The notes below the pieces were generated by a model. It searched no databases. It saw only the letters and a list, made by a program, of their open reading frames with translations, and was not told where the DNA came from. Positions 14,208 through 55,043 of a stretch of DNA of 64,000 nucleotides are shown one piece after another. Source of the DNA: Candidatus Omnitrophota bacterium (lineage in GTDB: Bacteria > Omnitrophota > Gorgyraeia > Pluralincolimonadales > Pluralincolimonadaceae); contig JBAZJG010000001.1 of NCBI GenBank assembly GCA_041651455.1, forward strand, positions 77,173 to 141,172, written 5' to 3'. Numbering within the stretch: position 1 is the first letter of the stretch; the number at the start of each line of letters is the position of its first letter. The position numbers and the translations under genes are program-made.

Positions 14208-14208
14208 C

Positions 14209-15045: not shown

Positions 15046-15097
15046 TTTAACTTATGTAGTATCATTGACTTAAATATACTTACTTAAGGAGGTTCAA

Positions 15098-31744: not shown

Positions 31745-31752
31745 GCGGAGAT

Positions 31753-34479: not shown

Positions 34480-35044
34480 GAAAAAATATTTGGTTCATAG
34501 GTCCTCGTATATAGACAAGGGCGTCAAGATCGGCGCCGGCACGAAGATCTGGCATTTCTGCCACGTGCTGGAGGGCTCCGAAATTGGCCGCGGCTGCAAA
34601 ATAGGGCAGAACGTAGTGATAGGCCCCGACGCGCGGATAGGCGATAATGTAAAGATACAGAATAACGTATCCGTCTACAAAGGGGTGGTCCTCGAGGACG
34701 ACGTCTTCTGCGGGCCGTCATGCGTATTCACGAACGTATTCAATCCGCGAAGCGCGGTCCCGCGCATGGACGAGATAAGGCCGACGCTCGTAAGGAAAGG
34801 CGCCTCGATCGGCGCTAACGCGACGGTCGTCTGCGGGATCACGATAGGAAGGAACGCTTTTATCGGCGCGGGCGCAGTGGTGACGAAAAACGTGCCGGAC
34901 TTCGCTCTGGTATACGGGAATCCGGCCAGGCAACGCGGATGGATATGCGAATGCGGAGAGAAACTGGTGTTCAAGGCAGGGTCTGCACGTTGCAAGTCAT
35001 GCGGTAAGAAGTATTTCAAACGCGGCCTTTTGGTTAGAAAATAA
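34472..35044 (+). CDS. Left-handed beta-helix sugar N-acetyltransferase (WbpD/WlbB-like) with a C-terminal Cys4 zinc ribbon
   Basis: Hexapeptide repeats (IGAGTKIW..., IGRGCKIGQNVVIG..., IGDNVKIQNNVSV) are followed by CECGEK...CKSCGKKY. Confidence 0.75.
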   Translation: MAEKKYLVHRSSYIDKGVKIGAGTKIWHFCHVLEGSEIGRGCKIGQNVVIGPDARIGDNVKIQNNVSVYKGVVLEDDVFCGPSCVFTNVFNPRSAVPRMDEIRPTLVRKGASIGANATVVCGITIGRNAFIGAGAVVTKNVPDFALVYGNPARQRGWICECGEKLVFKAGSARCKSCGKKYFKRGLLVRK

Positions 35045-35065
35045 AAAGAGAGGTATTTCGCGTTA

Positions 35066-35950
35066 ATGCCGAATATTACTAAAAATTGGGATGCAGATAA
35101 TAATGTGGTATCGGAAAAGACATACAGCCGTCCGGTAATCATAATCAGACCGCCATCTGGAGCATTCTATCTGGACTTAAGGGAATTATGGTCATATAGA
35201 GAGCTGGCATTTTTCTTCGTATGGCGCGATATTAAGATAAGGTACAAACAAACGATAATGGGGGCGATGTGGGCAGTATTCCAGCCATTCTTTGCAATGG
35301 TGGTATTCACGGTATTTTTCGGGAAACTTGCGAAGATGCCATCGGATGGTATCCCGTATCCGGTATTCGTATATGTGGGACTTCTCTTGTGGAATTATTT
35401 TGCATTCGGACTTGCGCATGCAAGCAACAGCATGATCAGCAATTCTAATATAATCCAAAAGATCTATTTTCCCAGACTGATAATCCCCCTTGCATCATCC
35501 CTTATAGGATTAATAGATTTTGCGGTCGCCTCGGTAATCCTGGCTATGCTAATGGTATATTATAGTTATGTACCCAATTTTAGCGGTTTGGTATATGTGC
35601 CGTTCTTGTTGCTTATTGCATTTTTTAGTTCTCTGGGTATAGGCAGTATTCTTGCGTCACTGAACGTTAAATACAGGGACGTCCAGTATATAATTCCATT
35701 TTTCATCCAAATGATGATGTTCCTTACCCCCGTGATCTATCCCGCGAGTATTGTAGGAAGCAAGTACCGGTGGATCCTTTCGCTTAATCCGATGACCGCA
35801 GTAATAGAAACGGCCAGGGCCGCGATTTTCGGTAATAGTCGTGTTGATATACACTCACTTTGCATATCAGGCGCAGTTAGCCTCTTCTTATTCATATTCG
35901 GTGTTGTTTATTTCAGGAAAACAGAAAGGTATTTCGCGGACATAATCTAA
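35066..35950 (+). CDS. wzm: ABC-2 type polysaccharide export permease (Wzm)
   Basis: Six TM helices and the motifs LDLRELWSYRELAFFFVWRDIKIRYKQT are present. The GC content drops sharply starting at this gene. Confidence 0.8.
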   Translation: MPNITKNWDADNNVVSEKTYSRPVIIIRPPSGAFYLDLRELWSYRELAFFFVWRDIKIRYKQTIMGAMWAVFQPFFAMVVFTVFFGKLAKMPSDGIPYPVFVYVGLLLWNYFAFGLAHASNSMISNSNIIQKIYFPRLIIPLASSLIGLIDFAVASVILAMLMVYYSYVPNFSGLVYVPFLLLIAFFSSLGIGSILASLNVKYRDVQYIIPFFIQMMMFLTPVIYPASIVGSKYRWILSLNPMTAVIETARAAIFGNSRVDIHSLCISGAVSLFLFIFGVVYFRKTERYFADII

Positions 35951-35954
35951 AAAT

Positions 35955-37238
35955 ATGGAAAATAACATTATTGAGATAAAAGGGGTCTCGAAAAGGTACA
36001 AAATTGGCAGAGGAGACAGATATCTGGCGCTTAGAGACAAGCTCACGTATTTTATGAACCCGTTGAATATGTTCAGGAAGGGAAAACGAAAAAGTCCAGG
36101 CGAAGAATTCTACGCGCTTAAGGATGTTAACCTTAACGTAAGGAAAGGCGAGATAGTCGGTATTATCGGAAGGAACGGTGCCGGTAAGACAACATTGCTT
36201 AAAATTATATCGAGGATTACTTATCCATCCGGGGGTGAGATAAAGATATACGGAAGAGTTGCCAGCCTGCTGGAGGTGGGAACGGGATTCCATCCCGAAT
36301 TGACCGGAAGAGAAAACGTATATTTCAACGGGTCCATCCTCGGGATGAAGAAGAGTGAAATAACCAGGAAGTTTGATGAGATCGTGGCATTTGCGGAGGT
36401 CGAGAAATTCATCGATATGCCGGTTAAGCGGTACTCAAGCGGCATGCAGGTAAGGCTTGCGTTTGCAGTTGCGGCCCATCTCGAACCCGAGATCTTGCTT
36501 ATAGACGAGGTGCTATCGGTAGGAGACATAACGTTCCAGAAGAAAAGCCTCGGGAAGATGGAGAATGTGGCGAGAGAAGGCAGGACCGTTCTTTTTGTTA
36601 GCCATAATATGGGAGCGGTGCAGAGGCTGTGCAACCGCGCCGTTTTGCTGAATAACGGTTTGGTGGTTGAGGACGGCGACGTAAACGAAGTTACGGAAAA
36701 ATATATGAGCTACGGCTTGAATAAGGCCGGGGAAAGGATATGGAGCGAAGAGAACTCCCCCGGAGATGATGTTGTTCGGTTGAGAAGAATTTGTGTAATG
36801 AACGCGAAGGGCGAAATTAAAGTGGAGTTCAATACACACGAAGGGATATTTGTTTCGGTTGAATATGCGGTCTTAAAAAACAACTATCCGTTAAATACTC
36901 TTCTCTATTTCCTCGATGAAGAGGGGATTACGAAATTCGTTTCCATGGATAATCTTGATTCCCCATGGAAGGATACGGTAAGGCCCGCAGGATTATACAG
37001 GTGCACATGTGAAGTCCCTCCTGACCTGTTGAACGAAGGCACTATAAGGATAAATGTAATCGTAACAACGAGCCCGTATAACCTACACGCGAGGGACTCT
37101 GATGTGCTCGTCTTCAAGGTTATAGACGACATGAGCAACAGCGGGGTAAGGGGGAATTACCCGCGTGAATGGCCTGCCGCGGTAGTAAGGCCGAGGCTTA
37201 ACTGGAAAGTGGAGATGTTGAACCATGGAAAAGGATAA
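35955..37238 (+). CDS. wzt: Polysaccharide export ABC transporter ATP-binding protein (Wzt) with a C-terminal glycan-binding domain
   Basis: Walker A GRNGAGKTT, the signature YSSGMQVRLAFA and a Walker B are followed by a C-terminal extension of about 180 aa. Confidence 0.85.
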   Translation: MENNIIEIKGVSKRYKIGRGDRYLALRDKLTYFMNPLNMFRKGKRKSPGEEFYALKDVNLNVRKGEIVGIIGRNGAGKTTLLKIISRITYPSGGEIKIYGRVASLLEVGTGFHPELTGRENVYFNGSILGMKKSEITRKFDEIVAFAEVEKFIDMPVKRYSSGMQVRLAFAVAAHLEPEILLIDEVLSVGDITFQKKSLGKMENVAREGRTVLFVSHNMGAVQRLCNRAVLLNNGLVVEDGDVNEVTEKYMSYGLNKAGERIWSEENSPGDDVVRLRRICVMNAKGEIKVEFNTHEGIFVSVEYAVLKNNYPLNTLLYFLDEEGITKFVSMDNLDSPWKDTVRPAGLYRCTCEVPPDLLNEGTIRINVIVTTSPYNLHARDSDVLVFKVIDDMSNSGVRGNYPREWPAAVVRPRLNWKVEMLNHGKG

Positions 37239-37980
37239 GGACTCTATAATATTGGTCACCTGCGGCGATTCGATAAGTATGCCGCGCTCCTTCGACGGTA
37301 TCCGTTGCGGTCATACTTATTCCGAGATAGTAAAGAAGAGTCTACAGGAAAAATATAAGGATAAAGAGGTATTTCTGTTCAACCGAGCGCTGGGAGGGGA
37401 GAGTATAGCTACCCTTTTCAGGATATTCCAGACCGACATACAGTATTTTGGAAAAGACGGAAGAAAGATACTTATATTGAGCGCAGGAATAGTAGATTGC
37501 GCGCTCAGGCCAATACCTCTTTGGTTGAAAAGAAAGATAGGCGTCATGCCTTCCGTTGTAAGAGAACCGATTATAAAATTCCTGCATAATAATAGAGCCA
37601 GGTTATTCGGATTGGGGCTTAAATGGAGGGTGACGTCTCCCGGAAGGTTCAAGCGCATATACTGCAATATACTTGCTGAAGCCTCCAAAGCATTTTCGAA
37701 AGTGTATGTCTTTACCATTATGCCGACGACTAAAAAGACAGAGAAGCATTCGCCCGGACTTACGTCAAGTATCGACCTCTATAACAGTATAATAAGGGAT
37801 ATAGTGAGCGTGCTTGCTCTCCCTAATATAGAGCTGATCGACATTAATGAGATGATAAACGAGGAAAAATATGACGTTGAAGATGTGGTTAACAATTCAG
37901 ACGGAATCCACCTGACCGTAAAAGGGCACAGAGTATTTGCGGATAAAATACTGGAAAGAGAAAAAAATGAGATCTTGTAA
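37225..37980 (+). CDS. SGNH/GDSL hydrolase family protein (candidate glycan esterase/O-acyltransferase)
   Basis: Block I VTCGDSISM and block V SDGIHLT are present. Confidence 0.6.
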   Translation: MEKDKDSIILVTCGDSISMPRSFDGIRCGHTYSEIVKKSLQEKYKDKEVFLFNRALGGESIATLFRIFQTDIQYFGKDGRKILILSAGIVDCALRPIPLWLKRKIGVMPSVVREPIIKFLHNNRARLFGLGLKWRVTSPGRFKRIYCNILAEASKAFSKVYVFTIMPTTKKTEKHSPGLTSSIDLYNSIIRDIVSVLALPNIELIDINEMINEEKYDVEDVVNNSDGIHLTVKGHRVFADKILEREKNEIL

Positions 37981-38968
37981 AGCCAAGACGATACACGAGA
38001 GATTGACAGGTTTTGACAAGTTCAGCCGTTCCCTGGAACCTCCGTTCCCGAAAGACATGCTTATTGAGCTAACAAACGCATGTAACAATAAATGCCTATT
38101 TTGCGCGAACAGGAAAATGACAAGAAAAACAGGTCATATCAGGATAGGTATTCTGGATAAGGTGTTGTCTCAGGCATATGCTCTCGGGTGCCGGAACGTG
38201 GGTTTTTATACTACCGGCGAACCTTTTATATCAAGCAAACTGCCGCAATGTATCTCAATGGCAAAAAAGAAGGGATTTACGTACATTTATTTGACAACGA
38301 ACGGTGTTCTGGCGACTCCCTCGCGCGTACGAGAAGTGATCGAGGCGGGCCTGGACAGCTTGAAGTTCTCGATAAATGCGGGGACAAGAAAGACGTACAA
38401 AGAGATACATGGTAGGGACGATTTTGACAAAGTAATAGCAAACCTTAAATATGCCTCGGAGTACAGGAAGAAAGTGTCCTCGCCTTTGACCATTCATGTT
38501 TCATACGTGATCACACGAAAAAACGAGAGAGAGCAGAATCGGTTCCGTGAATTGGTAACGCCTTTTGCGGATGACGTGTTCTTCCTGAACGTGAGCAACC
38601 AGGGGGGCATGATGCCCGAGATAAAGAAAGATCTTGTGCCTGAAAATCCGAATAGGAAATTTACGTATTCAAAAAAAGTGCCGTGCAGTATGGTATTCAA
38701 CAGGTTGCATATTACCCACGAAGGGTACGTGTCTGCTTGTTGTGTCGATTTCCAGAATTACTTGATAGTGGCAGACCTTAACAAAGTTGACCTATGGAAA
38801 GCTTGGCGTAGCAGGGTATTTAAGAAAATTAGAAGACTTCATCTGGAGAATATGCTACAAGGGACTCAATGTTATAATTGCGTTTACGACAAGCAGGATA
38901 CGGTCAAGCCTTTGTTGCCTGAATACGCTGCGGCACCAGATAACATGTCAAAAAAAGGAAGGATGTAA
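37967..38968 (+). CDS. Radical SAM / SPASM(twitch)-domain protein
   Basis: The motif CNNKCLFC (Cx3Cx2C) is followed by a C-terminal Cys-rich region CSMVF...SACCVDF...CYNC. Confidence 0.72.
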   Translation: MRSCKAKTIHERLTGFDKFSRSLEPPFPKDMLIELTNACNNKCLFCANRKMTRKTGHIRIGILDKVLSQAYALGCRNVGFYTTGEPFISSKLPQCISMAKKKGFTYIYLTTNGVLATPSRVREVIEAGLDSLKFSINAGTRKTYKEIHGRDDFDKVIANLKYASEYRKKVSSPLTIHVSYVITRKNEREQNRFRELVTPFADDVFFLNVSNQGGMMPEIKKDLVPENPNRKFTYSKKVPCSMVFNRLHITHEGYVSACCVDFQNYLIVADLNKVDLWKAWRSRVFKKIRRLHLENMLQGTQCYNCVYDKQDTVKPLLPEYAAAPDNMSKKGRM

Positions 38969-38969
38969 A

Positions 38970-40304
38970 ATGAATATAGATATTATCATACCTGCCTATT
39001 CGGAAACCGGAAAGGTATATAGGATAAACAGCGTTTTGATCAAGGGCAGGCCAATAATAGATTACACGCTTGAAGCCGCCATTAACGCGCCGTATATCAG
39101 GGGTATATATCTGATAACTGATGACAGCAGCATGCTTGAAAGATACGGATCATTAAAAAAGATAAAGGTGGTCATGCATAAGCATGAGGAAAACGGCGAT
39201 AATATAAGACTTAAGACGATACTGTCAAGCGCGCTTAAAAAGATAAAAGGCGCGCGGCCTGATCTGGCGGTGTTGTTATTAACGTCGGCACCCTTAAGAG
39301 ATGCGGGAATATTAGAATCGGCACTCAATTATGCCAGGTCGTTTGAGGAATATGACAGTATCGTCGGCGTGACAAGGTCGAGGAAATCGAGATTCGGCGT
39401 ATTGAACGTAGGCGCCAATGGGAAGACGGATTATAGCCAGGACAGGACATGTATCAGTTATACGGGCAAGGGGCAGCATTACACCGCCGCGGTAAACGGC
39501 GCACTGTATATCGTGAAGACAAATAGGCTTGGAAAGTTGAACGAAATGCTGTTATCTAGTAGAACCTACGGGTTTGAAATGGACGAAGAGGCAGGTAAGG
39601 ATATAGACTCTTCGGCGGATGTGGCGGTAGCAGAAGCTTTTCTTTCAATGAAAGAGGAACGCTTCGGACAGCATGCAAGGGGAAGGTTTAATGTGCAGCG
39701 CCTTTATATTCATGACGACAGGCAGATGGGGATAAACAGGAATGTCCTTGATGCCATGGCATACGAACGCCATTTTATGAGATATCGGAAATTCTTAAAG
39801 CGCATTTCCGCGTCGGATGACGTACTTGACATTGCATGCGGGAGTGGCTACGGCAGTGAAATATTGGCTTCGAAAGCCAGGTCGGTGACCGGAGTGGATT
39901 GCGACCCGGTCACCATAAAATATGCAGGTCGCCATCATAAGAAAAAAAACATAAATTTCAAAACATCGGCGATTGAAAAATTCAATCCCAAACGAAAGTT
40001 CGACAAAATAATCAGCGTGGAGACGATCGAACACCTTACCGACCCAGAGGGATACATGAAGAAAGCCAGGGGATGGCTCAAGCCCGGAGGACAGATATGG
40101 TTGACATGCCCGCTTTCTGGAATATGTCGGCAGGAAACCGAAAATCCTTTCCATATAAGTGAAATAACGTATGAAATGCTTAAGAGGATAATGAGGAAGT
40201 ATTTTAAGACTACAAGCTTCTATCGACTATCCGGAAAGAAAATATTCTCGGGTGACACCCTGAACAATAAGACGGCGTATATAGTCGCGAAAGGAGCTTT
40301 ATAA
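38970..40304 (+). CDS. Bifunctional fusion of an N-terminal cytidylyltransferase-like nucleotidyltransferase with a C-terminal class I SAM methyltransferase
   Basis: The N-terminus IIIPAYSETGKVYRINSVLIKGRPIIDYTLEAA has an NTP-transferase fold. The C-terminus has MTase motif I VLDIACGSGYGSEILA. The track ORF start at 38787 overlaps the upstream gene and is rejected; the chosen ATG at 38970 has the RBS aaggaagga. Confidence 0.6.
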   Translation: MNIDIIIPAYSETGKVYRINSVLIKGRPIIDYTLEAAINAPYIRGIYLITDDSSMLERYGSLKKIKVVMHKHEENGDNIRLKTILSSALKKIKGARPDLAVLLLTSAPLRDAGILESALNYARSFEEYDSIVGVTRSRKSRFGVLNVGANGKTDYSQDRTCISYTGKGQHYTAAVNGALYIVKTNRLGKLNEMLLSSRTYGFEMDEEAGKDIDSSADVAVAEAFLSMKEERFGQHARGRFNVQRLYIHDDRQMGINRNVLDAMAYERHFMRYRKFLKRISASDDVLDIACGSGYGSEILASKARSVTGVDCDPVTIKYAGRHHKKKNINFKTSAIEKFNPKRKFDKIISVETIEHLTDPEGYMKKARGWLKPGGQIWLTCPLSGICRQETENPFHISEITYEMLKRIMRKYFKTTSFYRLSGKKIFSGDTLNNKTAYIVAKGAL

Positions 40305-41638
40305 TGAAGGATATAGTCAAGTCACCTATACGGACTGACGATAATGATATGGTGCTGTCCTTGCCGATGACTGTACATATCGAACTGACATCTTCGTGTT
40401 GTTTCACATGTAGGCACTGCTATAATTTTTGGAGAAAAGAAAAGATCAACCACGTGTTCATGACAGAGGAAGGCCTCGATAAGATATTGGATGAGCTAAT
40501 AAAGAACGGGGTGATGCATGTGATATTTACCGGGGGAGAGCCTTTCATGAACAGGAAGGTGCTGTTGCGTGGTATCAAAAGGCTGAAAAGCGCCGGTTTA
40601 AGTTCGACATGCAATTCAACACTGGCCGTTTTCAACTCGATAGAAGAACTTAAGGAACTGAAGGAGGCCGGATTAGAGCACATTCTGACATCACTCAACT
40701 CATGCAGCGAAGAGACGAACGATTATCTTGTTACTAAGCGCGGCGCTCAATCTAAGATCATCAAAGGGATGCAGAACGCGATCTCAGCCGGGATACGCAT
40801 AAGCGTGAATATGATTATCTCGGAAAGTAATATAAATGATATTTACAGGACAGGCGAACTTGCAAGCAAGCTTGGAGCGAAGAAATTTTTCGGAACGAGG
40901 GTGGTACCCCATCTTTCCGGAAAGATAGAAGACCAGAAGGAATTTCTTATCTACCAAAAAGAAGCCAGGGTCATACTGGATGAGCTTATAAAGGTTCAGA
41001 ATGATTTTGCTATTCAGGTCGGGACGCTCGTCCCATTCCCATATTGCTTTGTATTCAAGGAGGAAGACAGACAAAAGTATGCCCGGTTCTATTCGCACGG
41101 TTGCCCCGCGGGGAATAAGATGATATCCATAAACGCAAACGGGGAAGCGCACGCCTGCGTCCACGAAAAACAGGGTTATGGGAACATATTGGAGATCGGA
41201 TTGAGGTCTGCCTGGAAGAACATGGAAAAATGGAGGTCCGGCGAGTATTTTCCTTCTGTTTGTAAGGAATGCGAGCTATTTGATGAATGCAATGGAGGCT
41301 GTCGCCTTGCTACTTTGGCATACAAGGGGGATATTTCATCGACTGACAACCTGAGGGTAGGATGGGCAAAAGGGAAAAAGAGAGTTGAAGATTCTGGCGA
41401 GCGGATGATATTGAAAGCAAGATACGCCGTTCCGCAAACCCTACGTTTTAGGAAGGAGAACGGGTTCTCGGTGGTAGACCGTTTTGGATCGGAAGTCCTA
41501 TGTGTGAAGGACAGGATCGCGAAAGTCCTGATGGATCATAAACTAAAGAAAACCGCATTTATCCCAGAAGAAGAAGGCATCTTGGACATAGAGACGTTAA
41601 AAACGCTCATAAATGAAAAACTTCTGGTGAAGGCATAA
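40304..41638 (+). CDS. Radical SAM / SPASM-domain protein
   Basis: The motif CCFTCRHC (Cx3Cx2C) is followed by a C-terminal SPASM-like Cys cluster CVHE...CKECELFDECNGGCR. Confidence 0.72.
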   Translation: MKDIVKSPIRTDDNDMVLSLPMTVHIELTSSCCFTCRHCYNFWRKEKINHVFMTEEGLDKILDELIKNGVMHVIFTGGEPFMNRKVLLRGIKRLKSAGLSSTCNSTLAVFNSIEELKELKEAGLEHILTSLNSCSEETNDYLVTKRGAQSKIIKGMQNAISAGIRISVNMIISESNINDIYRTGELASKLGAKKFFGTRVVPHLSGKIEDQKEFLIYQKEARVILDELIKVQNDFAIQVGTLVPFPYCFVFKEEDRQKYARFYSHGCPAGNKMISINANGEAHACVHEKQGYGNILEIGLRSAWKNMEKWRSGEYFPSVCKECELFDECNGGCRLATLAYKGDISSTDNLRVGWAKGKKRVEDSGERMILKARYAVPQTLRFRKENGFSVVDRFGSEVLCVKDRIAKVLMDHKLKKTAFIPEEEGILDIETLKTLINEKLLVKA

Positions 41639-41655
41639 CAAAAGGATATTCAAGA

Positions 41656-42339
41656 ATGAAGATAAAGCATTATGCCCTCATTCCCGCAAAGAAGGATTCA
41701 AGCCGGTGTAAAAACAAAAACTGGAGGAAATTCAGTAAAAATTGCAACCTTGTTGATTACACCGTAAAGTCGGTACCCGGGAACATGTTTGAGAAAATAA
41801 TTGTATCGACAGATAAAATAGACTACCATCCTCCGCGGCATGTATTGAAACACCTGAGAGACAGGAAATTGTCGAGAAAGGGTTCGTGCGTAAAGGACCT
41901 GATACGAATAATTATACGCGAATACGGATTAAGGGATGAGGACTATCTTTGGCTTCTTAATCCTACTTCGCCGTTTAGGGAAAAAACCGACTTTACTAGA
42001 ATTGCGGATTATATTGGCAGGTATAAGCCGGATTCGGTAATCTCGGTTATAGAAATACACCCATTCATATGGAAAGGGGCCAGCCCTTTGTTTGAGACGA
42101 GAGGGAAACGCAGGAATACGGAGAGTTTTAAGGAAAGGTATTCTGTTGAGAACGGCATGTTCTATGTGATGAATATCGGTTATTTCCGTTCTAAAAGGTC
42201 GTGGTATGGAAAGCGGTCAATGCTGTATAAGCGGCACGGTATCCTGTCGTTTGTGGACATCGATACGGAAGAGGAATTTATAGAAGCAAGAAAACTGACC
42301 GGAATAAAGGACTTCAAAAACCGGGGGAAAAGAGAATGA
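41656..42339 (+). CDS. Acylneuraminate/ulosonate cytidylyltransferase family protein (CMP-sugar synthetase)
   Basis: ALIPAKKDSSRCKNKN and NPTSPFR match the NeuA/KdsB/PseF-type motifs. Confidence 0.68.
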   Translation: MKIKHYALIPAKKDSSRCKNKNWRKFSKNCNLVDYTVKSVPGNMFEKIIVSTDKIDYHPPRHVLKHLRDRKLSRKGSCVKDLIRIIIREYGLRDEDYLWLLNPTSPFREKTDFTRIADYIGRYKPDSVISVIEIHPFIWKGASPLFETRGKRRNTESFKERYSVENGMFYVMNIGYFRSKRSWYGKRSMLYKRHGILSFVDIDTEEEFIEARKLTGIKDFKNRGKRE

Positions 42340-43205
42340 TAAGATTTAAGGACCTGAAGGATGTCTACCTTATAGGAGAAATAGGCATAAACCATAATGG
42401 CGACCTTCAGATTGCAAAGAAACTAATTGACGCTGTATACGCATGCGGATGGAAATGTGTGAAGTTTCAGAAGAGGAATCCGGATGTATGTGTTCCAGAA
42501 AGTCAGAAAAATACAAAGCGTGACACGCCTTGGGGAATGATGACATACCTGGAATACAAGAAACGAACGGAGTTCGGCAGGAAAGAATACGATTATATCG
42601 ACAAATATTGTAGGGAAAAACCGTTGAATTGGACGGCGTCAGTTTGGGATCTAGGCAGCTTTAAATTCATGAAGAAGTACGATCTTCCCTTTATTAAGCT
42701 GCCTTCCGCCAAGATAAATGACATGGAACTGGTAGAGGCTGTTGCGAAGTCCGGGATACCGGTGCTTGCATCGACCGGTATGAGCTCATTGGGCGAAATC
42801 GACAAGCTCGTTAGTATCCTTAGGAAATATTCGTGTGAATTCGCTCTTATGCATACGAATTCAAGCTACCCCACCCCGTTAGAAGAGCTTAACCTGAATT
42901 GCATCGTTACGCTTAGAAAAAGGTATGACTGTGTTATAGGTTATAGCGGCCATGAGTATAACGTGGAACCTACCGTTTACGCGTGCGTTCTGGGAGCCAA
43001 GATAATCGAAAGGCATATAACCCTTGATCATACGATGTGGGGGACAGACCAATCATCAAGCCTTGAAGTGGGCGCCATGTACCTCCTCAATAGAAGAGTG
43101 CAGCATATCGATATGATGCTGGGGAGCGGAATCAAGAAGATAAGTGCAAGCGAAAGAAAAATTATCAATAAGCTGAAGCATAACCTTTGCGAAAGGAGAA
43201 AATAA
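42336..43205 (+). CDS. NeuB-family ulosonic acid (sialic-acid-type) synthase, a short form lacking the SAF domain
   Basis: YLIGEIGINHNGDLQIAKKLID is the NeuB signature; 289 aa. Confidence 0.72.
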   Translation: MIRFKDLKDVYLIGEIGINHNGDLQIAKKLIDAVYACGWKCVKFQKRNPDVCVPESQKNTKRDTPWGMMTYLEYKKRTEFGRKEYDYIDKYCREKPLNWTASVWDLGSFKFMKKYDLPFIKLPSAKINDMELVEAVAKSGIPVLASTGMSSLGEIDKLVSILRKYSCEFALMHTNSSYPTPLEELNLNCIVTLRKRYDCVIGYSGHEYNVEPTVYACVLGAKIIERHITLDHTMWGTDQSSSLEVGAMYLLNRRVQHIDMMLGSGIKKISASERKIINKLKHNLCERRK

Positions 43206-43864
43206 TGTTGGGGCCGGATTTCAATAAACAATACGAATATGAGAACAGTTTCTACCTTACAGCGCCCATTAACAGGATTAGCAAATTTGTCACTCATCTT
43301 GATCTTTTCAGGAGGATTTCCGGATTGTCAGGAGAGATCGTGGAATGCGGCGTATTCAAAGGAGTGTCGCTGTCCAGATTGATTAAATTCAGAGCATTGT
43401 TTGAAAATCCGCAAAGTAGAAAGATAATAGCATTTGATACCTTCGGAGATTTTCCGGAAGCAAAATACAAGGCTGATGTCAAAAAAAGGCGACAATTTAT
43501 CTCAGAAGCAGGAAGCAAAAGCATAAGCAGGGATGAATTGATCTGCATCCTGAAAAAGCTGGATCTCTACCAGAACATCGAGCTCGTGGCAGGCAATATA
43601 TTGAAAACGGTGCCGCGCTACGTTTCAAGGAACAGACATCTGAAGATAGCCTTGCTGCATATAGATGTTGATCTGTATGAAGCGACGGATATATGCCTAA
43701 AGGAACTGTACCCGTTGGTCGTAAAGGGCGGGATAGTGGTATTGGATGATTACGGCGCCTTTCCCGGAGCTAATAAAGCCATTGACGATTATTTTGTGAA
43801 TAAGAAGGTCAGAATTAAAAAATACCCTTATTCCAACGCCATATCATATGTGCAAGTCGATTGA
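43205..43864 (+). CDS. TylF/MycF-family SAM-dependent O-methyltransferase
   Basis: IVECGVFKGVSLSRL and the C-terminal VVLDDYG are present, and the TAATG overlaps the upstream stop. Confidence 0.62.
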   Translation: MLGPDFNKQYEYENSFYLTAPINRISKFVTHLDLFRRISGLSGEIVECGVFKGVSLSRLIKFRALFENPQSRKIIAFDTFGDFPEAKYKADVKKRRQFISEAGSKSISRDELICILKKLDLYQNIELVAGNILKTVPRYVSRNRHLKIALLHIDVDLYEATDICLKELYPLVVKGGIVVLDDYGAFPGANKAIDDYFVNKKVRIKKYPYSNAISYVQVD

Positions 43865-44379
43865 GAAAGGGCGGTGATAAAATGAGAATACATAAGTATT
43901 ACGATCTTAAGAAGGTAAAATTGATAGTATATGATTTCGACGGTGTTTTTACCGATAATAAGGTCATTCTTATGGAAGACGGGAAAGAAGGTGTTATAGT
44001 AAACAGGTCGGATGGGCTTGCGGTATCAATCTTCAAGAAAATGGGTATTCCTCAAATTATATTGTCTACCGAAAGAAATCCCATAGTTAAGGCCAGATCG
44101 AGGAAACTTGGCATACCAGCCTTGACCTGCGTTAACGATAAGAAGAAGGATCTCTCTTCATATTGCAGGAAACTCAATATCCCGCTGCATTCCGTGGCTT
44201 ATATCGGTAATGATATCAACGACTATGAAGCGATGTTATGCGTGGGATTCCCGATAGCGCCGGCGGATGCGAACAGCCGCATAAAAGGCATAGCGGAAAT
44301 AGTAACTAAAACACGAGGCGGGGAAGGAGTTGCCCGAGAGTTACTCGATATATTTACCCGCGGAATGGGAGTATGCTGA
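43861..44379 (+). CDS. HAD-IIIA phosphatase of the KdsC family (ulosonate-phosphate phosphatase)
   Basis: IVYDFDGVFTD and GNDINDYEAM are present; the protein is about 165-172 aa. Confidence 0.7.
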   Translation: MRKGGDKMRIHKYYDLKKVKLIVYDFDGVFTDNKVILMEDGKEGVIVNRSDGLAVSIFKKMGIPQIILSTERNPIVKARSRKLGIPALTCVNDKKKDLSSYCRKLNIPLHSVAYIGNDINDYEAMLCVGFPIAPADANSRIKGIAEIVTKTRGGEGVARELLDIFTRGMGVC

Positions 44380-46193
44380 AATACGACATGGGAACAATGA
44401 GGTGTGCGGACGGCTCTTCGTTGATTTATGAAGTCGATAAGACCGCATCAATGATCGCGCTTAGGATATCACAAGAGCTTAAAAAAGATCCGATCTTCGG
44501 AGAATTAGATGAAAGGTTGCCAGGCGGGTGGTCCCTGTTTTATTTTCAGATATTAATAAAAGATAAAATATATCCGTACATACGACAAGCACACGTCATC
44601 CGCTGGTATATCGGAAACGGGATAACCATACCTGATAAAGAGAAGACCGTAACGATACCGCAATGCGGTATACTTACAGTTTTAAAAGATCATTGGGATT
44701 TCGATGATGTACCTATACGGTACGGAAGAGGTCCGCTTTCCGGATGGGATAAGGCGCTGAAAAGAACGGTAAAACGGTACAGGGATGGTTTGCTCAAGAC
44801 CTGGGAAGCGTACATATTCGGTCAGGCAAAGGAAAATGCGAAGCAGGACCTCGCCGGGACCGCCCGCACCATAGCCTGTCATTATGCTGAAGGATTTGAT
44901 CCTAACAGGCGAAATGACTTGAACTGGTATGCCGGTAGCGGGATAGACGCGAAAGACGTTTTGATATACTTTGATTGTCCGGATAATATTACCGGTGGTC
45001 CTATCGGCAAGGAAACTATCGACAAACTTGAAAGCAAAGGTTTTAGATGCGTGGCTCTCAAAAATGGCGTCGTAAATAGCATGCATTCGGCATTTTGTAA
45101 AGTACCATGTATACACCCGGACAGATATCTAAAAGCAGGCCGTGTGCGCAACCCGGTTACGGATTGGCTTGTTGAGGAAGGGAACGATCTCATCCGGAGC
45201 GTAGAATATTGGAGGTCATTTTATAAGGAATTTGGCATAAAAGTGAATTATGTAGCGGAAGAGAACCCGTATGTGAACATTCCGCAAAGGATAGCTTTCG
45301 ATGTTGATGGCGAAAACGGCGGCCTTCTTGCAGGCAAGCAAAGGTCGGAGGTGCCGTTCATATACCGTTACCTGAATGGGTATCACCCCAAGCATATATA
45401 TTTTACGTGGAATAGGAGATCCGCGTTAAACATTGAGCAAAAACATGAGAATGTAGGCAGGATAGTGGTTACCGGTTATCCTTATGGCACGCTGTGTCCG
45501 GCGAAAGATGACGCTTCATTATTGAGATCGAGAGGAGCCAAATTCATAATAGCGCTTTTTGATAATATACACGGTTCCGATTATATATATTCAACCGATG
45601 AAATGAGGCGATATTATGAGGCCTTCCTGTCGTTTATGATTGAGGACGAAACGACCGGGATAATAATAAAATCAAAGAAACCGCTTGTTATCCAAAAACT
45701 GCCTGAGATACACACGCTTCTCGAAAAGGCGGTTGCAACAGGTCGGTGCATAAGGCTTGACAGGGAGATTGGCAGGCTTCCTTTTGACGCATCCAGGAAT
45801 GCCGATCTTGCCGTGGGAGTTGGCATATCATCACCTGTGATAGAAGCGGTGATAGCCGGTTGCAAGGGGGTTCATTATGACATCACGCATTATAAAAAGC
45901 ACGTGTTCTATGAATGGGGATACGAGAAAATTATCTTCGATGATATATTGAGGCTTATTGATGCGATAAAAAGATTCAAGAAAGAGCCGTCATCGGAGCC
46001 GGGACTCGGTGATTGGTCCGGGCATATCGAGGAGCTCGACCCGTTTTGCGACAGGAAAGGAGGAGAACGGATGGGGAGTTATATGAAAATTCTCTTCGAA
46101 TCATTCAGGTCAGGCAAAGGTCGTGTGACTGCCGTAAACGACGCGGACAGGACTTATTCTCGCGAATGGGGCGATTATAAGATTGTAAAATGA
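44373..46193 (+). CDS. Hypothetical 606-aa protein; possibly a glycosyltransferase (candidate capsule-type ulosonate transferase), fold unassigned
   Basis: It is a long ORF with good coding appearance inside the operon, but no motif was recognised with confidence. Confidence 0.3.
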   Translation: MLKYDMGTMRCADGSSLIYEVDKTASMIALRISQELKKDPIFGELDERLPGGWSLFYFQILIKDKIYPYIRQAHVIRWYIGNGITIPDKEKTVTIPQCGILTVLKDHWDFDDVPIRYGRGPLSGWDKALKRTVKRYRDGLLKTWEAYIFGQAKENAKQDLAGTARTIACHYAEGFDPNRRNDLNWYAGSGIDAKDVLIYFDCPDNITGGPIGKETIDKLESKGFRCVALKNGVVNSMHSAFCKVPCIHPDRYLKAGRVRNPVTDWLVEEGNDLIRSVEYWRSFYKEFGIKVNYVAEENPYVNIPQRIAFDVDGENGGLLAGKQRSEVPFIYRYLNGYHPKHIYFTWNRRSALNIEQKHENVGRIVVTGYPYGTLCPAKDDASLLRSRGAKFIIALFDNIHGSDYIYSTDEMRRYYEAFLSFMIEDETTGIIIKSKKPLVIQKLPEIHTLLEKAVATGRCIRLDREIGRLPFDASRNADLAVGVGISSPVIEAVIAGCKGVHYDITHYKKHVFYEWGYEKIIFDDILRLIDAIKRFKKEPSSEPGLGDWSGHIEELDPFCDRKGGERMGSYMKILFESFRSGKGRVTAVNDADRTYSREWGDYKIVK

Positions 46194-46196
46194 GGA

Positions 46197-47375
46197 ATGC
46201 ATATGAAACGGATTAATGTGCTTGTGGTCGGTGCGGGTATGTATGTTTGCGGAAGGGGTACAGAGACATTCGGGACCATCATCCCGTCGCTGAACGAATC
46301 AAACAAGTCCGGCGCTTTAGGAAAGATCTTTATAGCCGGAAGGAGCATCTCCGGAATAAGGGCCGCGAAAAAGAAGATTGCCTCACTAAATAAGGCTATG
46401 GGGACCGCGCCGGACCTATCTTTCTATGCCGACGTCAAGAACGGTCCAAAAGGTTATATAAGGGCAATACAGGAGATGCCGAGGCCGGCCTGCGCCATTA
46501 TCGCGGTTCCAGACAACATCCATAAGGATGTAGCAGAGGCTGCGTTGTTGAATGGTATGCATGTGCTGGTCGTTAAACCGTTTGTTGAAACGGTAAAGGA
46601 TGCGAAGGATCTCGAGAAGACGAGGAAAGAACAAGGGCTTTACGGGGCGGTGGAATTCCATAAAAGATACGATGATGCCAACCTGAAATTAAGGGATGCC
46701 ATATCACAGGGTGCTATAGGAGACCCGTTATATTTCCTTGCTGAATTCAGCCAAAGAAAGAGCATGCCGGAAAAAGTATTCAGAAGATGGGCGGCTTCTA
46801 CGAATATTTTCCAGTACCTTGGGATCCATTATGTGGATATGGTCCACTTTGTCACCAAGGCAAAACCGGTACGGGCAATGGCTACCGGCCAGTCGTATTG
46901 GCTGAGATCAAAAGGCATTGATACGTATGATGCCGTTGAAGCCGTTACCGAGTGGAAACTGGAGAACGGAAAAAGATTCGTTTCGCATATACTTACCAAC
47001 TGGATAGACCCCGAGAAGACATCGGCCATGTCAGACCAGAAGATAAAGGTCATAGGCACGAAAGGAAGGTTCGAGTCAGATCAAAAGGCCCGCGGAGTTA
47101 CTATGATTACCGATAAGAATGGCATAGAAGAGATAAATCCGTATTTTTGCAGCCAGTACGGTCCATATGGGAATGTGAGATTCCGCGGCTACGGAATAGA
47201 CAGTATAAAGACCTTTCTCAACGATTCTATAGCGATAGAGTACGGCAGCAAAACCATTGAAGAGCTTGAAAGGGAAAGGCCTACTTTCAATAACTCGCTT
47301 ATACCCACAATGGTGCTTGAAGCTGTTAATACAAGCTTGAAATGCAACGGTAAATGGGTTGAGATAGCCAGATGA
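46197..47375 (+). CDS. Putative NAD(P)-binding oxidoreductase (Rossmann N-terminus)
   Basis: INVLVVGAGMYVCGRG resembles a dinucleotide-binding fold; the rest is unassigned. Confidence 0.35.
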   Translation: MHMKRINVLVVGAGMYVCGRGTETFGTIIPSLNESNKSGALGKIFIAGRSISGIRAAKKKIASLNKAMGTAPDLSFYADVKNGPKGYIRAIQEMPRPACAIIAVPDNIHKDVAEAALLNGMHVLVVKPFVETVKDAKDLEKTRKEQGLYGAVEFHKRYDDANLKLRDAISQGAIGDPLYFLAEFSQRKSMPEKVFRRWAASTNIFQYLGIHYVDMVHFVTKAKPVRAMATGQSYWLRSKGIDTYDAVEAVTEWKLENGKRFVSHILTNWIDPEKTSAMSDQKIKVIGTKGRFESDQKARGVTMITDKNGIEEINPYFCSQYGPYGNVRFRGYGIDSIKTFLNDSIAIEYGSKTIEELERERPTFNNSLIPTMVLEAVNTSLKCNGKWVEIAR

Positions 47376-48415
47376 AAAAGATGTTCGTTCCGCACGAGCG
47401 GTTATCTGTATTTATAAAGAAGGTACTCCTAAATGCCGGGGTACGCGAAGATGTTGCGTATCATGTCAATGAAGGGTTAGTACAAGCGTCACTAAGGGGG
47501 GTCGATTCGCACGGTATAAGGCTATTTCCGCATTATATGGCGTCGGTAAAAGCGGGCAGGATAAATCCCGATCCCGAATATAAGTTCGAGAGGACCTCGG
47601 CCTCTACCGGAAAGTTCGACGCAGACCACACCTTCGGGCACGCCGCCGGCATAGAGTCGGCAAGGAAGGCGGTAGAGCTCGCCAAGGAAGCGGGGACGGG
47701 CAGCATAGCCGTGTTCAATTCGACCCACTTCGGCGCTGCCGCATATTTCACGCTCGAGATAGCAAAGCAAGGGATGATAGGGTTAAGCTTCACTCATGCG
47801 GATTCGCTGATGAAGACATATGCGGGCAAAAGGGCGTTCCTCGGGACGAACCCGATATCCTTCGCCGCGCCGGTGGAGGGCGAAGAACCGTTCTGCCTCG
47901 ACATGGCCACGACGCTTTATAATTTCAACAAGATAAAGCAGCTGAGGGAGCGCAAGCATCCCGCACCTGAAGGCGTAGGCGCGGATACGGAAGGCAATGA
48001 GACGACGGATGCGGATAAGATATCGATGCTGCTTCCAATGGGCGGATACAAAGGATACGGCCTTAGCCTGATGGTGGAGGTGCTTTGCGGGATACTTACC
48101 GGCATGCCATACGGCCCTAATATATCGAGCATGTTCAAGGCGCCGTTGTCGCAGAAAAGGTTCCTCGGACATTTTATCTGCGCGATGAGGATAGACTGTT
48201 TCCAGGAAGAAAAGGTCTTTAAGCGGCGCATGGCCGAATTGTTGAATGAACTGAGGAATGAGCCTCCCATGGAGAAAGGGGTACCGGTGCAGGTGGCGGG
48301 AGACCCGGAGAAGAAGGCCGCTTCGGAAAGGACGAAAGAAGGGATACCGATGGCCGCGCCGGAAGCGGAGGCCTTCATGAAGCTATCCGCCGAATACGGG
48401 GTGGAATTCATATAG
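47372..48415 (+). CDS. Ldh2-family (malate/L-lactate/sulfolactate dehydrogenase type 2) oxidoreductase
   Basis: PMGGYKGYGLSLMVEVLCGILTG matches the Ldh_2 family. The GC content returns to the high level here. Confidence 0.68.
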   Translation: MKKMFVPHERLSVFIKKVLLNAGVREDVAYHVNEGLVQASLRGVDSHGIRLFPHYMASVKAGRINPDPEYKFERTSASTGKFDADHTFGHAAGIESARKAVELAKEAGTGSIAVFNSTHFGAAAYFTLEIAKQGMIGLSFTHADSLMKTYAGKRAFLGTNPISFAAPVEGEEPFCLDMATTLYNFNKIKQLRERKHPAPEGVGADTEGNETTDADKISMLLPMGGYKGYGLSLMVEVLCGILTGMPYGPNISSMFKAPLSQKRFLGHFICAMRIDCFQEEKVFKRRMAELLNELRNEPPMEKGVPVQVAGDPEKKAASERTKEGIPMAAPEAEAFMKLSAEYGVEFI

Positions 48416-50061
48416 TGGAAAGAGCGGACTTCGCGATAATAGTCCCTCCGGCGGGGGTAAGCAATACGGTGTATCCGCCGTACGGGGCGATGTACATCGC
48501 GAGCGCGGCAAGGAAAGCGGGGCTCGAGGTCCGAATAATCAATGTCGATACCGACAGGATATCGAACGCAGAAGTAATTGAACGGCTGAAGGCGCTCAGG
48601 CCGGGATTCATAGGCATAAGCGGGATAGTCGCGCCGTCATATAAATATATCAAGGGCCTCAGCGCGGATATCAAGGCCGCGATGCCGGAGAGCATACAGA
48701 TACTCGGCGGAGGGTTGTCGAGCGCGGCGGAGACGGTCCTGAATAACATGCCGGTGGATTACGTTGTCGCCGGCGAAGGCGATAGGGCAATAACGGAACT
48801 AATCGGCCGCCTGCGGGACGGGAAGGTACCTTCGGACGTCACGGGGCTTTATTACAGGGAGGGTGGCAAATGCGTATTCACGGGCGCAAGGAGACTCATA
48901 GCGAATATAGATGAATTGCCTTATCCGGCGTTCGACCTGGTCGATATGTCCAGGTATATGCCCGACGGGAAGGAGTTCATAGGGTATTTCATCCAGGATA
49001 TAAAGGACAGAAGGATAACGGATCCCGGCCGTAAGGGCGGGATGGTGACGATACCGACGGGCAGAGGATGCTTCGGGAAGTGCTCATTCTGCTTCAGGGC
49101 ATACCCGGGGCTCAGGACCCATTCCATGAAATATGTATTCGACCTCATAGAATACTGCGCGGAGAAATTCGGCACGAGCTACTTCTCCTTCGGGGACGAA
49201 TGCTTCGCGCCGAACAAGGAACATAACCGGAAATTTATCGAGGAGTACAAGAAGAGGAAACTTGACCTTGTCTTCAGGATACTCGGAATGAGGGTCGACA
49301 CGGTCGACAGGGACATATTGCACGCTTATAAGGATATAGGATGCTGGATGATCGAGTACGGTTTTGAGGCCGGCAACCAGAGGATGCTTAATATTATCGA
49401 TAAGAGGGTCACCGTGGAGCAGAACAGGCAGGTCGCGCTCTGGACCAGGGAGGCGGGGATATATACGTCGCCGACGATCGTCCTCGCGATGCCCGGAGAG
49501 ACGGACAGGACAGTCAACGAATCTATAGGGTTCCTTAAATCGCTGAACCTCGGTTATAAGCAGTACCAATGGTCGTACGCCCTGCCGATACCCGGTGCGC
49601 CGCTATATGATTTTGCGAAACTGTCGGGCGCCATCAGGGACGAAGACGAATATCTCGCCTCGCTTGACGGCAGGGTCGCGGGCGCGGGGGTCTTCCATGT
49701 AAACCTTACCGATGAGCCGGACTCAACGGTCGCCGGATGGGCGGACAGGATAAAGGAAGAAGTCGACGCGGATTATTTCAGGAAGGTATACAGGTTCGGG
49801 GCTATCGCCGCGATAGCGCGCCTTCTTAAGAAGATCCGCCTGCACCTAAGGAGGAAGGACCTGAAGGATGTCATCAAAGGAAAATTGAAGAGCATCTGGC
49901 GGGGGCATCCGGGCGGGCAAACCTCTGCCCCTGTCGCGGCCCCGGCAAGGTTCAGGAAGAGAAGCGATATCGTATTCGAGGACCTGATAAAGGGCATGGA
50001 CGACACGGTCATCAACAGGGAGATGGCGCTTAAGAACATAAATACGAGGCTCGCGCCGTGA
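48415..50061 (+). CDS. B12-binding (class B) radical SAM protein
   Basis: An N-terminal cobalamin-binding Rossmann fold (AIIVPP...YIASAARKAGLEVRIINVD) and a radical-SAM motif CFGKCSFC are present. Confidence 0.75.
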   Translation: MERADFAIIVPPAGVSNTVYPPYGAMYIASAARKAGLEVRIINVDTDRISNAEVIERLKALRPGFIGISGIVAPSYKYIKGLSADIKAAMPESIQILGGGLSSAAETVLNNMPVDYVVAGEGDRAITELIGRLRDGKVPSDVTGLYYREGGKCVFTGARRLIANIDELPYPAFDLVDMSRYMPDGKEFIGYFIQDIKDRRITDPGRKGGMVTIPTGRGCFGKCSFCFRAYPGLRTHSMKYVFDLIEYCAEKFGTSYFSFGDECFAPNKEHNRKFIEEYKKRKLDLVFRILGMRVDTVDRDILHAYKDIGCWMIEYGFEAGNQRMLNIIDKRVTVEQNRQVALWTREAGIYTSPTIVLAMPGETDRTVNESIGFLKSLNLGYKQYQWSYALPIPGAPLYDFAKLSGAIRDEDEYLASLDGRVAGAGVFHVNLTDEPDSTVAGWADRIKEEVDADYFRKVYRFGAIAAIARLLKKIRLHLRRKDLKDVIKGKLKSIWRGHPGGQTSAPVAAPARFRKRSDIVFEDLIKGMDDTVINREMALKNINTRLAP

Positions 50062-51828: not shown

Positions 51829-51829
51829 T

Positions 51830-55032: not shown

Positions 55033-55043
55033 AAGGGCTTTAT

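Follow-up and report, generated by a model that had tools for sequence, protein, structure and literature searches.

A candidate Kdn-type nonulosonate cassette with a TylF-family methyltransferase in a Candidatus Omnitrophota genome

We analysed a 64-kb stretch of DNA (the window) that matches a metagenome-assembled genome (MAG) of Candidatus Omnitrophota at 100% identity. All large open reading frames (ORFs) of the window lie on the + strand, and the part from 22 to 64 kb forms a single long glycan-biosynthesis cluster. Positions 41656-44379 hold four genes, which a preliminary description had read as a branch for an O-methylated ulosonic acid of the Kdn (2-keto-3-deoxynononic acid) or Kdo (3-deoxy-octulosonic acid) type. 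The four ORFs were found on the + strand at the positions given there, in the order cytidylyltransferase, NeuB, TylF methyltransferase and HAD phosphatase, and their domains were confirmed:

41656..42339, + strand: cytidylyltransferase of 227 aa (CT227), by PF02348, the PseF model and Protein Data Bank (PDB) matches
42336..43205, + strand: NeuB-family synthase of 289 aa lacking a SAF domain, predicted to be of the Kdn-9-phosphate (Kdn-9-P) type, using phosphoenolpyruvate (PEP) and a sugar 6-phosphate; PF03102
43205..43864 (ORF 43187-43864), + strand: S-adenosylmethionine (SAM)-dependent O-methyltransferase of the TylF/MycF/NovP family, 219 aa; PF05711
43882..44379 (ORF 43861-44379), + strand: type C0 HAD phosphatase of 165 aa, probably of the Kdn-9-P phosphatase lineage; models NF058599 and TIGR01670

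The CT227 stop and the NeuB start overlap in an ATGA at 42336-42339, the NeuB stop and the methyltransferase start overlap in a TAATG at 43203-43207, and the ATG at 44373 of the next gene, which encodes a PFTS-motif protein, overlaps the phosphatase stop. Shine-Dalgarno-like purine runs are present at the gene junctions. These overlapping stops and starts suggest that the four genes and the next one are translationally coupled. The TAATG and the length of the homologues also favour ATG 43205, giving 219 aa, over TTG 43187 as the likely start of the methyltransferase. The phosphatase ORF opens at TTG 43861, and the protein likely starts at ATG 43882 (165 aa; homologues 164-166 aa). The GC content is 42-48% at 34000-47000 compared with ~55% on both sides, the 46-48 kb bin being already at 49%. 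This low-GC stretch spans the ABC transporter through the PFTS gene into a GFO gene, consistent with a horizontally acquired cassette. The same gene order is kept in a relative with a 93%-identical TylF protein (L086; fetched loci are given by L numbers).

The synthase matches PF03102 at 215.4 bits (cutoff 22.1) over residues 30-267. A domain scan detected no SAF domain, and 22 residues remain after the NeuB domain; the preliminary description had correctly seen a NeuB-family synthase made of this domain alone. The NeuB/LegI and PseI equivalogs carry a C-terminal SAF domain that supplies a substrate-binding Arg, and the window protein scores below both models, with 223 bits for NeuB_NnaB TIGR03569 (cutoff 400) and 165 bits for PseI TIGR03586 (cutoff 340). 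The metal-binding His pair and the catalytic acidic residues are kept: E15, H206, E225, H227 and D238 align with E25, H215, E234, H236 and D247 of N. meningitidis NeuB and are invariant in the family alignment. N. meningitidis E134 is not retained; it is replaced by K126 in the window synthase and by Ser in the active enzyme of the alga P. parvum. No further NeuB-family ORF was found in the window, and a second NeuB or a KdsA there was rejected after ORF scans.

Database relatives of the synthase number more than 8,000. Among these, the closest 120 all measure 271-308 aa, consist of the NeuB domain alone and come from Omnitrophota, candidate phyla radiation (CPR) groups, Elusimicrobia, Nitrospirae and others. 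With the window NeuB as query, 80 loci with 45-62% identity were retrieved from species-representative genomes, in Actinomycetota (Streptomyces, Nonomuraea, Streptosporangium, Brevibacterium), Chloroflexota, Bacteroidota/Ignavibacteria, Pelagibacter, Planctomycetota and a Methanoregula. In a published survey, ~30% of NeuB homologues were without SAF and were concentrated in a tree group containing Streptomyces and Brevibacterium; the survey drew no link between them and a phosphorylated route (PMC8208679). The Kdn-9-P synthetase of P. parvum is also SAF-less (312 aa; sequence from the supplement of PMC6200933) and converts only mannose 6-phosphate (Man-6-P), not N-acetylmannosamine 6-phosphate (ManNAc-6-P), arabinose 5-phosphate (Ara-5-P) or unphosphorylated sugars (PMC6200933). 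It is 32% identical to the window synthase (E 1e-33) and matches actinobacterial short NeuBs at 150-158 bits.

The preliminary description had proposed a NeuB phylogeny as a check. A neighbour-joining tree was calculated from the P. parvum enzyme, partial PDB sequences of N. meningitidis NeuB and Leptospira 6ncs, and unnamed SAF-containing NeuBs from the fetched loci, with Kimura distances for the bootstrap. The window protein does not group with Neu5Ac (N-acetylneuraminic acid), Leg (legionaminic acid) or Pse (pseudaminic acid) synthases. The SAF-containing NeuBs and N. meningitidis NeuB lie outside, the short Leptospira 6ncs comes next, and the short NeuBs as a whole have the P. parvum enzyme as their sister; the short clade received 86% bootstrap support, and 87% (87/100) together with the P. 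parvum enzyme. The P. parvum enzyme and the short clade have several motifs in common that set them apart from the long NeuBs: KFQKR(N/T)P after strand 2 (KFQKRNP in the window and P. parvum proteins), a Trp in a (V/P)WD motif with no counterpart in the long NeuBs, SGH instead of SDH ahead of the first metal-binding His, and W-x-G-(T/S)-D instead of GPD (W-x-G-T-D in the window and P. parvum proteins). From these sequence features, the synthase is most likely of the Kdn-9-P synthase type, acting on PEP and Man-6-P.

The phosphatase scores 104.5 bits against the KDN-9-P phosphatase model NF058599, below its cutoff of 180, and also misses the KdsC models TIGR01670 (subfamily; 97.9 bits, cutoff 106.95) and NF007019 (91.6 bits, cutoff 208). 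Its best PDB match is 3mmz, a Streptomyces-type HAD protein (125 bits). The Bacteroides Kdn-9-P phosphatase BT1713 follows with 83 bits, above the chains deposited as KdsC/KDO8P phosphatases (58-72 bits); the C-terminal domain of mouse CMAS (3ewi) scores 64 bits. Level with BT1713 is the Aquifex chain 2p9j (83.8 bits), which was deposited unnamed and which we take to be a KDO8P phosphatase. The protein is a KdsC-type HAD, as first described, and its best relatives do not place it among unrelated HAD enzymes. Residues D25, D27, E71, R79 and K82 align with D10, D12, E56, R64 and K67 of BT1713, the two Asp residues being those of the DxD nucleophile motif. A Glu/Lys pair and a conserved Arg (E56, K67 and R64 in BT1713) reportedly mark the Kdn-9-P phosphatase lineage, for which fusion to a nucleotidyltransferase is also said to be typical. 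The D/D/E/R/K pattern occurs in 72 of 75 aligned HAD proteins, namely the window protein, BT1713, 3mmz and 69 of the 71 locus proteins, whereas the Aquifex enzyme, the single KDO8P phosphatase in the alignment and the sole basis of this contrast, has R/R/E in place of E/R/K at the last three positions.

The BT1713-type pattern argues against a Kdo-type branch, in which the HAD protein would be KdsC, the NeuB-like enzyme would stand in for KdsA, and the KdsB encoded at 56765-57499 would be the partner. The window does encode a true KdsB (NF009905, 288.8 bits, cutoff 255) and, as the preliminary description had stated, neither kdsA nor kdsD. No DAHP-synthase-type or SIS-domain protein is present among the 45 large + strand ORFs scanned, which are all + strand ORFs of at least 150 aa minus two that overlap scanned genes in other frames. 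Moreover, the HAD protein is just 9 bits short of the KdsC subfamily cutoff. However, kdsB lies 12 kb downstream of the cassette in another module, beside an HMGL-like aldolase gene, and we know of no Kdo-8-P synthase in the NeuB family. Ara-5-P is not used by the P. parvum enzyme (PMC6200933). The Kdo part of the original reading was therefore not borne out, and we regard such a branch as extremely unlikely.

Gene neighbourhoods connect the short synthases to the phosphatase. For NeuB genes with at least 2 kb of flanking sequence on both sides, the six-frame ORFs of the fetched loci were searched with the window proteins. A KdsC-type HAD gene is found within 5 kb of 61 of the 82 short NeuBs but only 2 of the 24 long ones (Fisher p = 5e-9), and both long-NeuB exceptions are in loci that also hold a short NeuB. 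The reverse is true for the NeuC-type UDP-GlcNAc 2-epimerase, which is within 5 kb of none of the 82 short NeuBs and 13 of the 24 long ones (p = 1.6e-10). These patterns suggest that short NeuBs use a phosphorylated sugar that requires no dedicated supply genes, and that the product is dephosphorylated and then CMP-activated. In most short-NeuB loci the KdsC-type HAD is encoded directly upstream, usually as the C-terminal part of a fusion with a cytidylyltransferase (~400-440 aa); in the window it is two genes downstream of NeuB. In Streptosporangiales, cytidylyltransferase, HAD and NeuB are joined in a single ORF of ~688 aa (Nonomuraea, Streptosporangium, Herbidospora, Microtetraspora, Acrocarpospora and Sphaerisporangium; L010-L021, L026, L029 and L053, at about 8765-10830 in each), so that all three steps would share one polypeptide. 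The fusions are qualitative evidence independent of the co-occurrence counts. The three-step logic of PEP condensation, dephosphorylation and CMP activation put forward in the preliminary description is supported by both, and we consider the coupling of synthase and phosphatase very probable.

A vertebrate-like route to Neu5Ac, from ManNAc-6-P to Neu5Ac-9-P with the HAD protein as a NANP-like phosphatase, would also fit a phosphorylated pathway. BT1713 also hydrolyses Neu5Ac-9-P, and the window has a ROK-family kinase gene at 19143-20060. NANS, in turn, carries a SAF/antifreeze-like domain and NANP belongs to a different HAD subfamily. The three-step logic of NANS, NANP and CMAS, with phosphosugar condensation, dephosphorylation and CMP activation, equals that proposed for the cassette, and CMAS has a KdsC-like C-terminal domain, but the substrate of NANS is ManNAc-6-P (PMC8208679), which the characterised SAF-less enzyme rejects (PMC6200933). 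No NeuC, NanE or other ManNAc source was found in the 64-kb window or near the 82 short NeuBs, and the ROK gene is 22 kb away, beyond the glycan cluster. Several Streptomyces genomes have the short-NeuB cassette, and the references given in PMC7845648 report Streptomyces cell-wall polymers with Kdn, not Neu5Ac. A Neu5Ac route is thus very unlikely.

The cytidylyltransferase CT227 matches PF02348 at 32 bits, above the gathering score of 22.6, in agreement with the CMP-synthetase expected at the outset, and misses the PseF model (42.9 bits, cutoff 205.7). No KdsB model or KdsB structure was matched by CT227. Only CMP-sialic-acid/CMP-Kdn synthetases appear among its PDB matches; the best are 1qwj, the CMP-Neu5Ac synthetase of the mouse, and 9t4z, NeuA of P. 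parvum, both with 27 bits. By eye, CT227 keeps the motifs IPAKKDSSRCKNKN (P-loop-like), NPTSPF and VDIDT. Its orthologues (253-516 bits; L084-L088) are always placed directly upstream of the NeuB or TylF gene. The window contains five CTP_transf_3 domains in ~19 kb (38967-57499), including a GT2-cytidylyltransferase fusion at 51830-53182, and the gene at 51091-51828 was considered as an alternative CMP-Kdn synthetase. This gene belongs to a block at 44373-55032 that encodes the PFTS protein, GFO/IDH/MocA and Ldh_2 proteins, a B12 radical SAM protein, a methyltransferase, the cytidylyltransferase, the GT2-cytidylyltransferase and an unknown protein of ~620 aa. The block is conserved (144-682 bits) in a MAG of Candidatus Brocadiaceae (anammox; L166, 10001-21875), where it occurs alongside a Leg-type cluster whose SAF-containing NeuB has its own cytidylyltransferase. 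The block is an independent module, and the candidate at 51091-51828 was downgraded for its conservation with a SAF-type NeuB. Because of its overlap with NeuB, the placement of its orthologues and its PDB matches, and the location of 51091-51828 in a separate block, CT227 is most likely the activating cytidylyltransferase, though this is not certain.

The true KdsB is part of a further arrangement. Its gene directly follows that of a 574-aa protein resembling HMGL and 4-hydroxy-2-oxovalerate aldolase (55044-56768), and a B12 radical SAM gene comes next. No kdsA, kdsC or kdsD is found near it. The segment 55044-57499 might encode a pyruvate-aldolase pathway leading to a keto-acid sugar activated with CMP.

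The methyltransferase matches PF05711 at 76.6 bits (cutoff 23). Among solved structures, the closest is the TDP-rhamnose 3'-O-methyltransferase CalS11 (63.6 bits), whose substrate is a nucleotide sugar, and NovP comes second. Across 25 homologues, the motifs D160-x-D162 and D187-D188 do not vary, and they match Asp positions in CalS11 and NovP, except for one Asp-to-Glu change in CalS11. The closest homologues (58-93% identity, 216-241 aa) include several on the contigs of the closest NeuB homologues. To look at this association from the side of the methyltransferase, metagenome contigs were scanned with patterns derived from the TylF alignment alone, giving 40 loci flanked by 1.2 kb or more on each side. 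A NeuB-family gene is within 5 kb in 31 of them and is the immediate neighbour in 23, suggesting that this TylF subfamily is a nonulosonate-linked methyltransferase family. Conversely, only 2 of the 80 loci of the NeuB-seeded genome scan have a gene of this TylF subfamily, so the methyltransferase appears to depend on the nonulosonate pathway and not vice versa. The arrangement recurs in different contexts. L084 is syntenic with the window (cytidylyltransferase-methyltransferase fusion, CT227-like protein, short NeuB, TylF, PFTS, HAD and cytidylyltransferase), the synteny extends to L086-L088, and L085 has the same kinds of genes in a rearranged order. Pelagibacter L034 has a cytidylyltransferase, a short NeuB, TylF and a SPASM radical SAM gene. 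In the cultured Citrifermentans bremense, the gene of a 65%-identical TylF is flanked by those of a SAF-type NeuB and a NeuC-like epimerase, within a flagellin-type locus that also holds an aminotransferase and a Maf/MptE-like gene.

O-methylated nonulosonates are known chemically. We know of no methyltransferase assigned to 5-O-methyl-Kdn. According to PMC7845648, this sugar occurs in bacteria, in the polysaccharide of Sinorhizobium fredii SVQ293 (citing Gil-Serrano 1998). CMP-nonulosonates with an additional 14 Da have been detected by mass spectrometry and read as O-methylated, with no enzyme assigned (bioRxiv 10.64898/2026.04.20.719630). Our literature search found no gene assigned to nonulosonate O-methylation, and none of the top-ranked papers combined the TylF family with nonulosonic acids. 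In Leg/Pse-type sugars, C4 and C8 are the only positions with a hydroxyl besides the anomeric one, and O4 and O8 are the sole hydroxyls common to Kdn-type and Leg/Pse-type sugars. A conserved regiochemistry would therefore place the methyl group on O4 or O8. The position may thus differ from that in the S. fredii sugar.

Alternatively, the TylF enzyme may spare the nonulosonate and methylate another glycan residue, for example a chain-terminating cap read by an extended Wzt ATPase. For many TylF/MycF/NovP enzymes the substrate is an already attached sugar, and methyl caps are an established mechanism for terminating ABC-transporter-dependent O-antigens. The ABC ATPase at 35955-37238, which is closest to teichoic-acid and galactan exporters of the Wzt/TagH type, has ~170 C-terminal residues past its nucleotide-binding domain without a Pfam match, and this extension could be a glycan-end-recognition domain. 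On the other hand, a domain scan detected no Wzt_C carbohydrate-binding domain in it. TylF and NeuB genes are adjacent across unrelated cluster types, including the C. bremense locus with no Wzm/Wzt called in its 10-kb flanks, and NeuB is the immediate TylF neighbour in more than half of the TylF-seeded loci. We consider methylation of another residue quite unlikely. The conserved adjacency supports the O-methylated ulosonic acid suggested in the preliminary description, and it is probable that the TylF enzyme methylates a nonulosonate.

Taken together, the genes suggest the following pathway. The SAF-less NeuB (42336-43205) would condense PEP with a hexose 6-phosphate drawn from central metabolism, likeliest Man-6-P, to a 9-phospho-nonulosonate (Kdn-9-P), and the HAD protein (43882-44379) would remove the 9-phosphate. 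A cytidylyltransferase, likeliest CT227 (41656-42339), would then yield the CMP-sugar. The TylF enzyme (43205-43864) may use SAM to methylate a hydroxyl on the nonulosonate, possibly while this is a CMP-sugar, a timing that we lean slightly against. Finally, the PFTS protein, which has a GT-B (glycosyltransferase B) fold, could place the sugar on a glycan to be exported by the upstream Wzm/Wzt transporter. The model builds on domain identities, catalytic and specificity residues, clade membership, and fusion and co-occurrence patterns, all of which are observed. The Man-6-P substrate, the identity of the cytidylyltransferase, the acceptor, position and timing of methylation and the role of the transferase are what we infer from them. 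As a whole, a Kdn-type nonulosonate branch with a phosphorylated route and a dedicated nonulosonate methyltransferase is the reading that we favour with some confidence; for Kdn itself as the primary product, the chance appears slightly better than even.

Several points weigh against this model. Both the synthase and the phosphatase score under the NCBIfam equivalog cutoffs. The synthase is only distantly related to the characterised P. parvum enzyme, at 32% identity, and its subclade (Omnitrophota, CPR and Methanoregula) has no characterised member. The tree was made by neighbour joining only and is without BT1714, NANS and named LegI and PseI references, and the co-occurrence counts ignore phylogenetic relatedness. 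CT227 is a weak cytidylyltransferase match, and the product of 51091-51828 is nearer to the P. parvum CMP-Kdn synthetase and the HAD-fused cytidylyltransferases (63 vs 27 bits). The NeuBs near TylF in the 31 loci are of the long type in 22 cases and of the short type in 9, and since the long ones are of the Leg/Pse type, the TylF subfamily is nonulosonate-linked but not Kdn-specific. Enzymes of this family often act after glycosyl transfer. In addition, SPASM and B12 radical SAM enzymes usually accompany NeuB in the subclade of the window, and the final product may thus differ from plain Kdn, as could the sugar-phosphate substrate. The genes next to the cassette are as follows:

35066..37238, + strand: ABC-2 permease and ATPase of the Wzm/Wzt type; ABC2_membrane and ABC_tran domains
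38967..40304, + strand: fusion of a cytidylyltransferase and a class I methyltransferase, 445 aa; N-terminal CTP_transf_3, C-terminal Methyltransf_11/25
40304..41638, + strand: radical SAM/SPASM protein of 444 aa; Radical_SAM, Fer4_12 and SPASM domains
44373..46193, + strand: PFTS-motif protein of 606 aa with a GT-B fold, by a weak TIGR04417 match and an AlphaFold2 (AF2) model

Two SPASM radical SAM genes (37937-38968 and 40304-41638) and three B12 radical SAM genes (48415-50061, 57481-58977 and 61327-62835) are present in the window. The best solved relatives of the 444-aa SPASM protein are PqqE and the sugar-nucleoside decarboxylase BlsE. Its orthologues, with more than 150 and up to 820 bits, occur within 5 kb of the TylF homologue in 13 of the 40 loci and also in Pelagibacter L034, and they are immediate TylF neighbours in, for example, L091, L095, L096, L099, L101, L103, L106, L116 and L163. 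This repeated adjacency suggests a two-enzyme modification step. The gene that immediately precedes the CT227-like one in L084 and L085, and NeuB in L001, encodes an orthologue of the fusion protein (398-463 bits).

These neighbours raise the question whether the phosphorylated route leads to a different product. PEP could be condensed with a modified hexose 6-phosphate or a heptose 7-phosphate, or a Kdn intermediate could be converted by the SPASM/B12 radical SAM enzymes and the fusion protein into a C-methylated or carbon-extended ulosonic acid. Such partners repeatedly flank the subclade (L001, L002, L004, L005, L008, L084, L085 and L088). In Pelagibacter L034, an HldE-like fusion of a PfkB kinase and a cytidylyl/adenylyltransferase, a heptose kinase/adenylyltransferase type, is encoded at 14131-15651, three genes from the NeuB-TylF pair, making heptose-phosphate chemistry near this short NeuB a possibility, and CMP-linked higher-carbon ulosonic acids have been reported by mass spectrometry (bioRxiv 10.64898/2026.04.20.719630). 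In contrast, the phosphatase has the exact Kdn-9-P-binding pattern, the synthase has the motifs of a Man-6-P-specific enzyme, a supply of Man-6-P needs no gene in the cassette, and the functions of the radical SAM proteins are entirely unassigned. We therefore regard another product as unlikely. A wider view, in which the fusion, SPASM, CT227, short NeuB, TylF, HAD, PFTS GT-B and B12 radical SAM proteins form a recurrent module for an O-methylated, possibly C-methylated or carbon-extended CMP-ulosonic acid, with TylF as a nonulosonate O-methyltransferase acting at O4/O8, is put forward tentatively and is on balance doubtful. If true, the radical SAM partners would explain the 'higher-carbon' CMP-ulosonic acids recently detected.

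The Kdn-type branch that we favour resembles several known systems. In Bacteroides thetaiotaomicron, Kdn is made by the synthase BT1714, the phosphatase BT1713 and the CMP-Kdn synthetase BT1715 (Wang et al. 2008, as cited in PMC6200933). The three steps and the enzyme families are the same, and the window HAD shares the five residues of BT1713 noted above. The window, however, adds the methyltransferase, a divergent cytidylyltransferase and the adjoining SPASM and fusion genes, and its HAD is under the NF058599 cutoff. With P. parvum it shares the SAF-less synthase with its common motifs and sister position, and the algal CMP-Kdn synthetase ties for the best solved match of CT227; the synthases are divergent, and the alga is without a recognisable KdsC-type phosphatase or a linked methyltransferase. 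The actinobacterial cassettes (Streptomyces, Brevibacterium and Nonomuraea) are closer in synthase family (47-50% identity) and in phosphatase lineage, represented by 3mmz. In them, the cytidylyltransferase and the phosphatase, and sometimes the synthase, are fused and have no TylF or radical SAM partner, whereas the window proteins are separate. CalS11, NovP and MycF share the fold family and the Asp-rich metal/base motifs of the TylF enzyme but act on 6-deoxyhexoses in antibiotic pathways, unlike the window subfamily with its genomic ties to NeuB-family synthases. For the methylated product, the S. fredii sugar is a chemical precedent.

The three-step route itself is already known from B. 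thetaiotaomicron and P. parvum. What is new, and modest, is that the route occurs in Omnitrophota and that a conserved TylF subfamily, partnered by SPASM radical SAM and cytidylyltransferase-methyltransferase proteins, is linked to nonulosonates. Recognition by phages, hosts and immune lectins is governed by nonulosonic acids, which cap surface glycans and flagellins, and the phosphorylated Kdn route has so far been demonstrated in few organisms. The cassette is seen across Omnitrophota, CPR, Actinomycetota, Chloroflexota, Bacteroidota, SAR11 and one methanogen, and has simple signatures: a SAF-less NeuB with KFQKR and W-x-G-T-D, and a HAD with the E/R/K triad. The TylF subfamily is nominated as an easily expressed enzyme family for nonulosonate O-methylation, a modification known from 5-O-Me-Kdn and the +14 Da CMP-nonulosonates, and could serve in making methylated sialic-acid analogues.

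The PFTS protein matches TIGR04417 weakly, and its AF2 model (pLDDT 86, pTM 0.86) has a GT-B fold. Foldseek searches with the model gave similar E-values for GT-B glycosyltransferases, UDP-GlcNAc 2-epimerases and a bacterial polysialyltransferase, and homologues adjoin NeuB, TylF or HAD genes in L001, L084, L085, L088 and L166. It is plausible from the model that the protein is the transferase for the activated sugar; alternatively, it may have an epimerase-like role.

Other genes of the cluster suggest additional sugars and a regulator. RmlA/B/D-like genes are located at 24118-26725. Genes for a UDP-sugar 6-dehydrogenase, a DegT aminotransferase, a GFO/IDH/MocA oxidoreductase and a hexapeptide acetyltransferase, at 26725-28032 and 32363-35044, resemble the WbpA/E/B/D set for UDP-2,3-diacetamido-2,3-dideoxy-uronic acid. 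Amid the glycan cluster, 31133-32262 encodes a winged-helix/MarR-like protein and a NusG paralogue, the latter of which may act on a very long operon as an antiterminator of the RfaH/LoaP kind.

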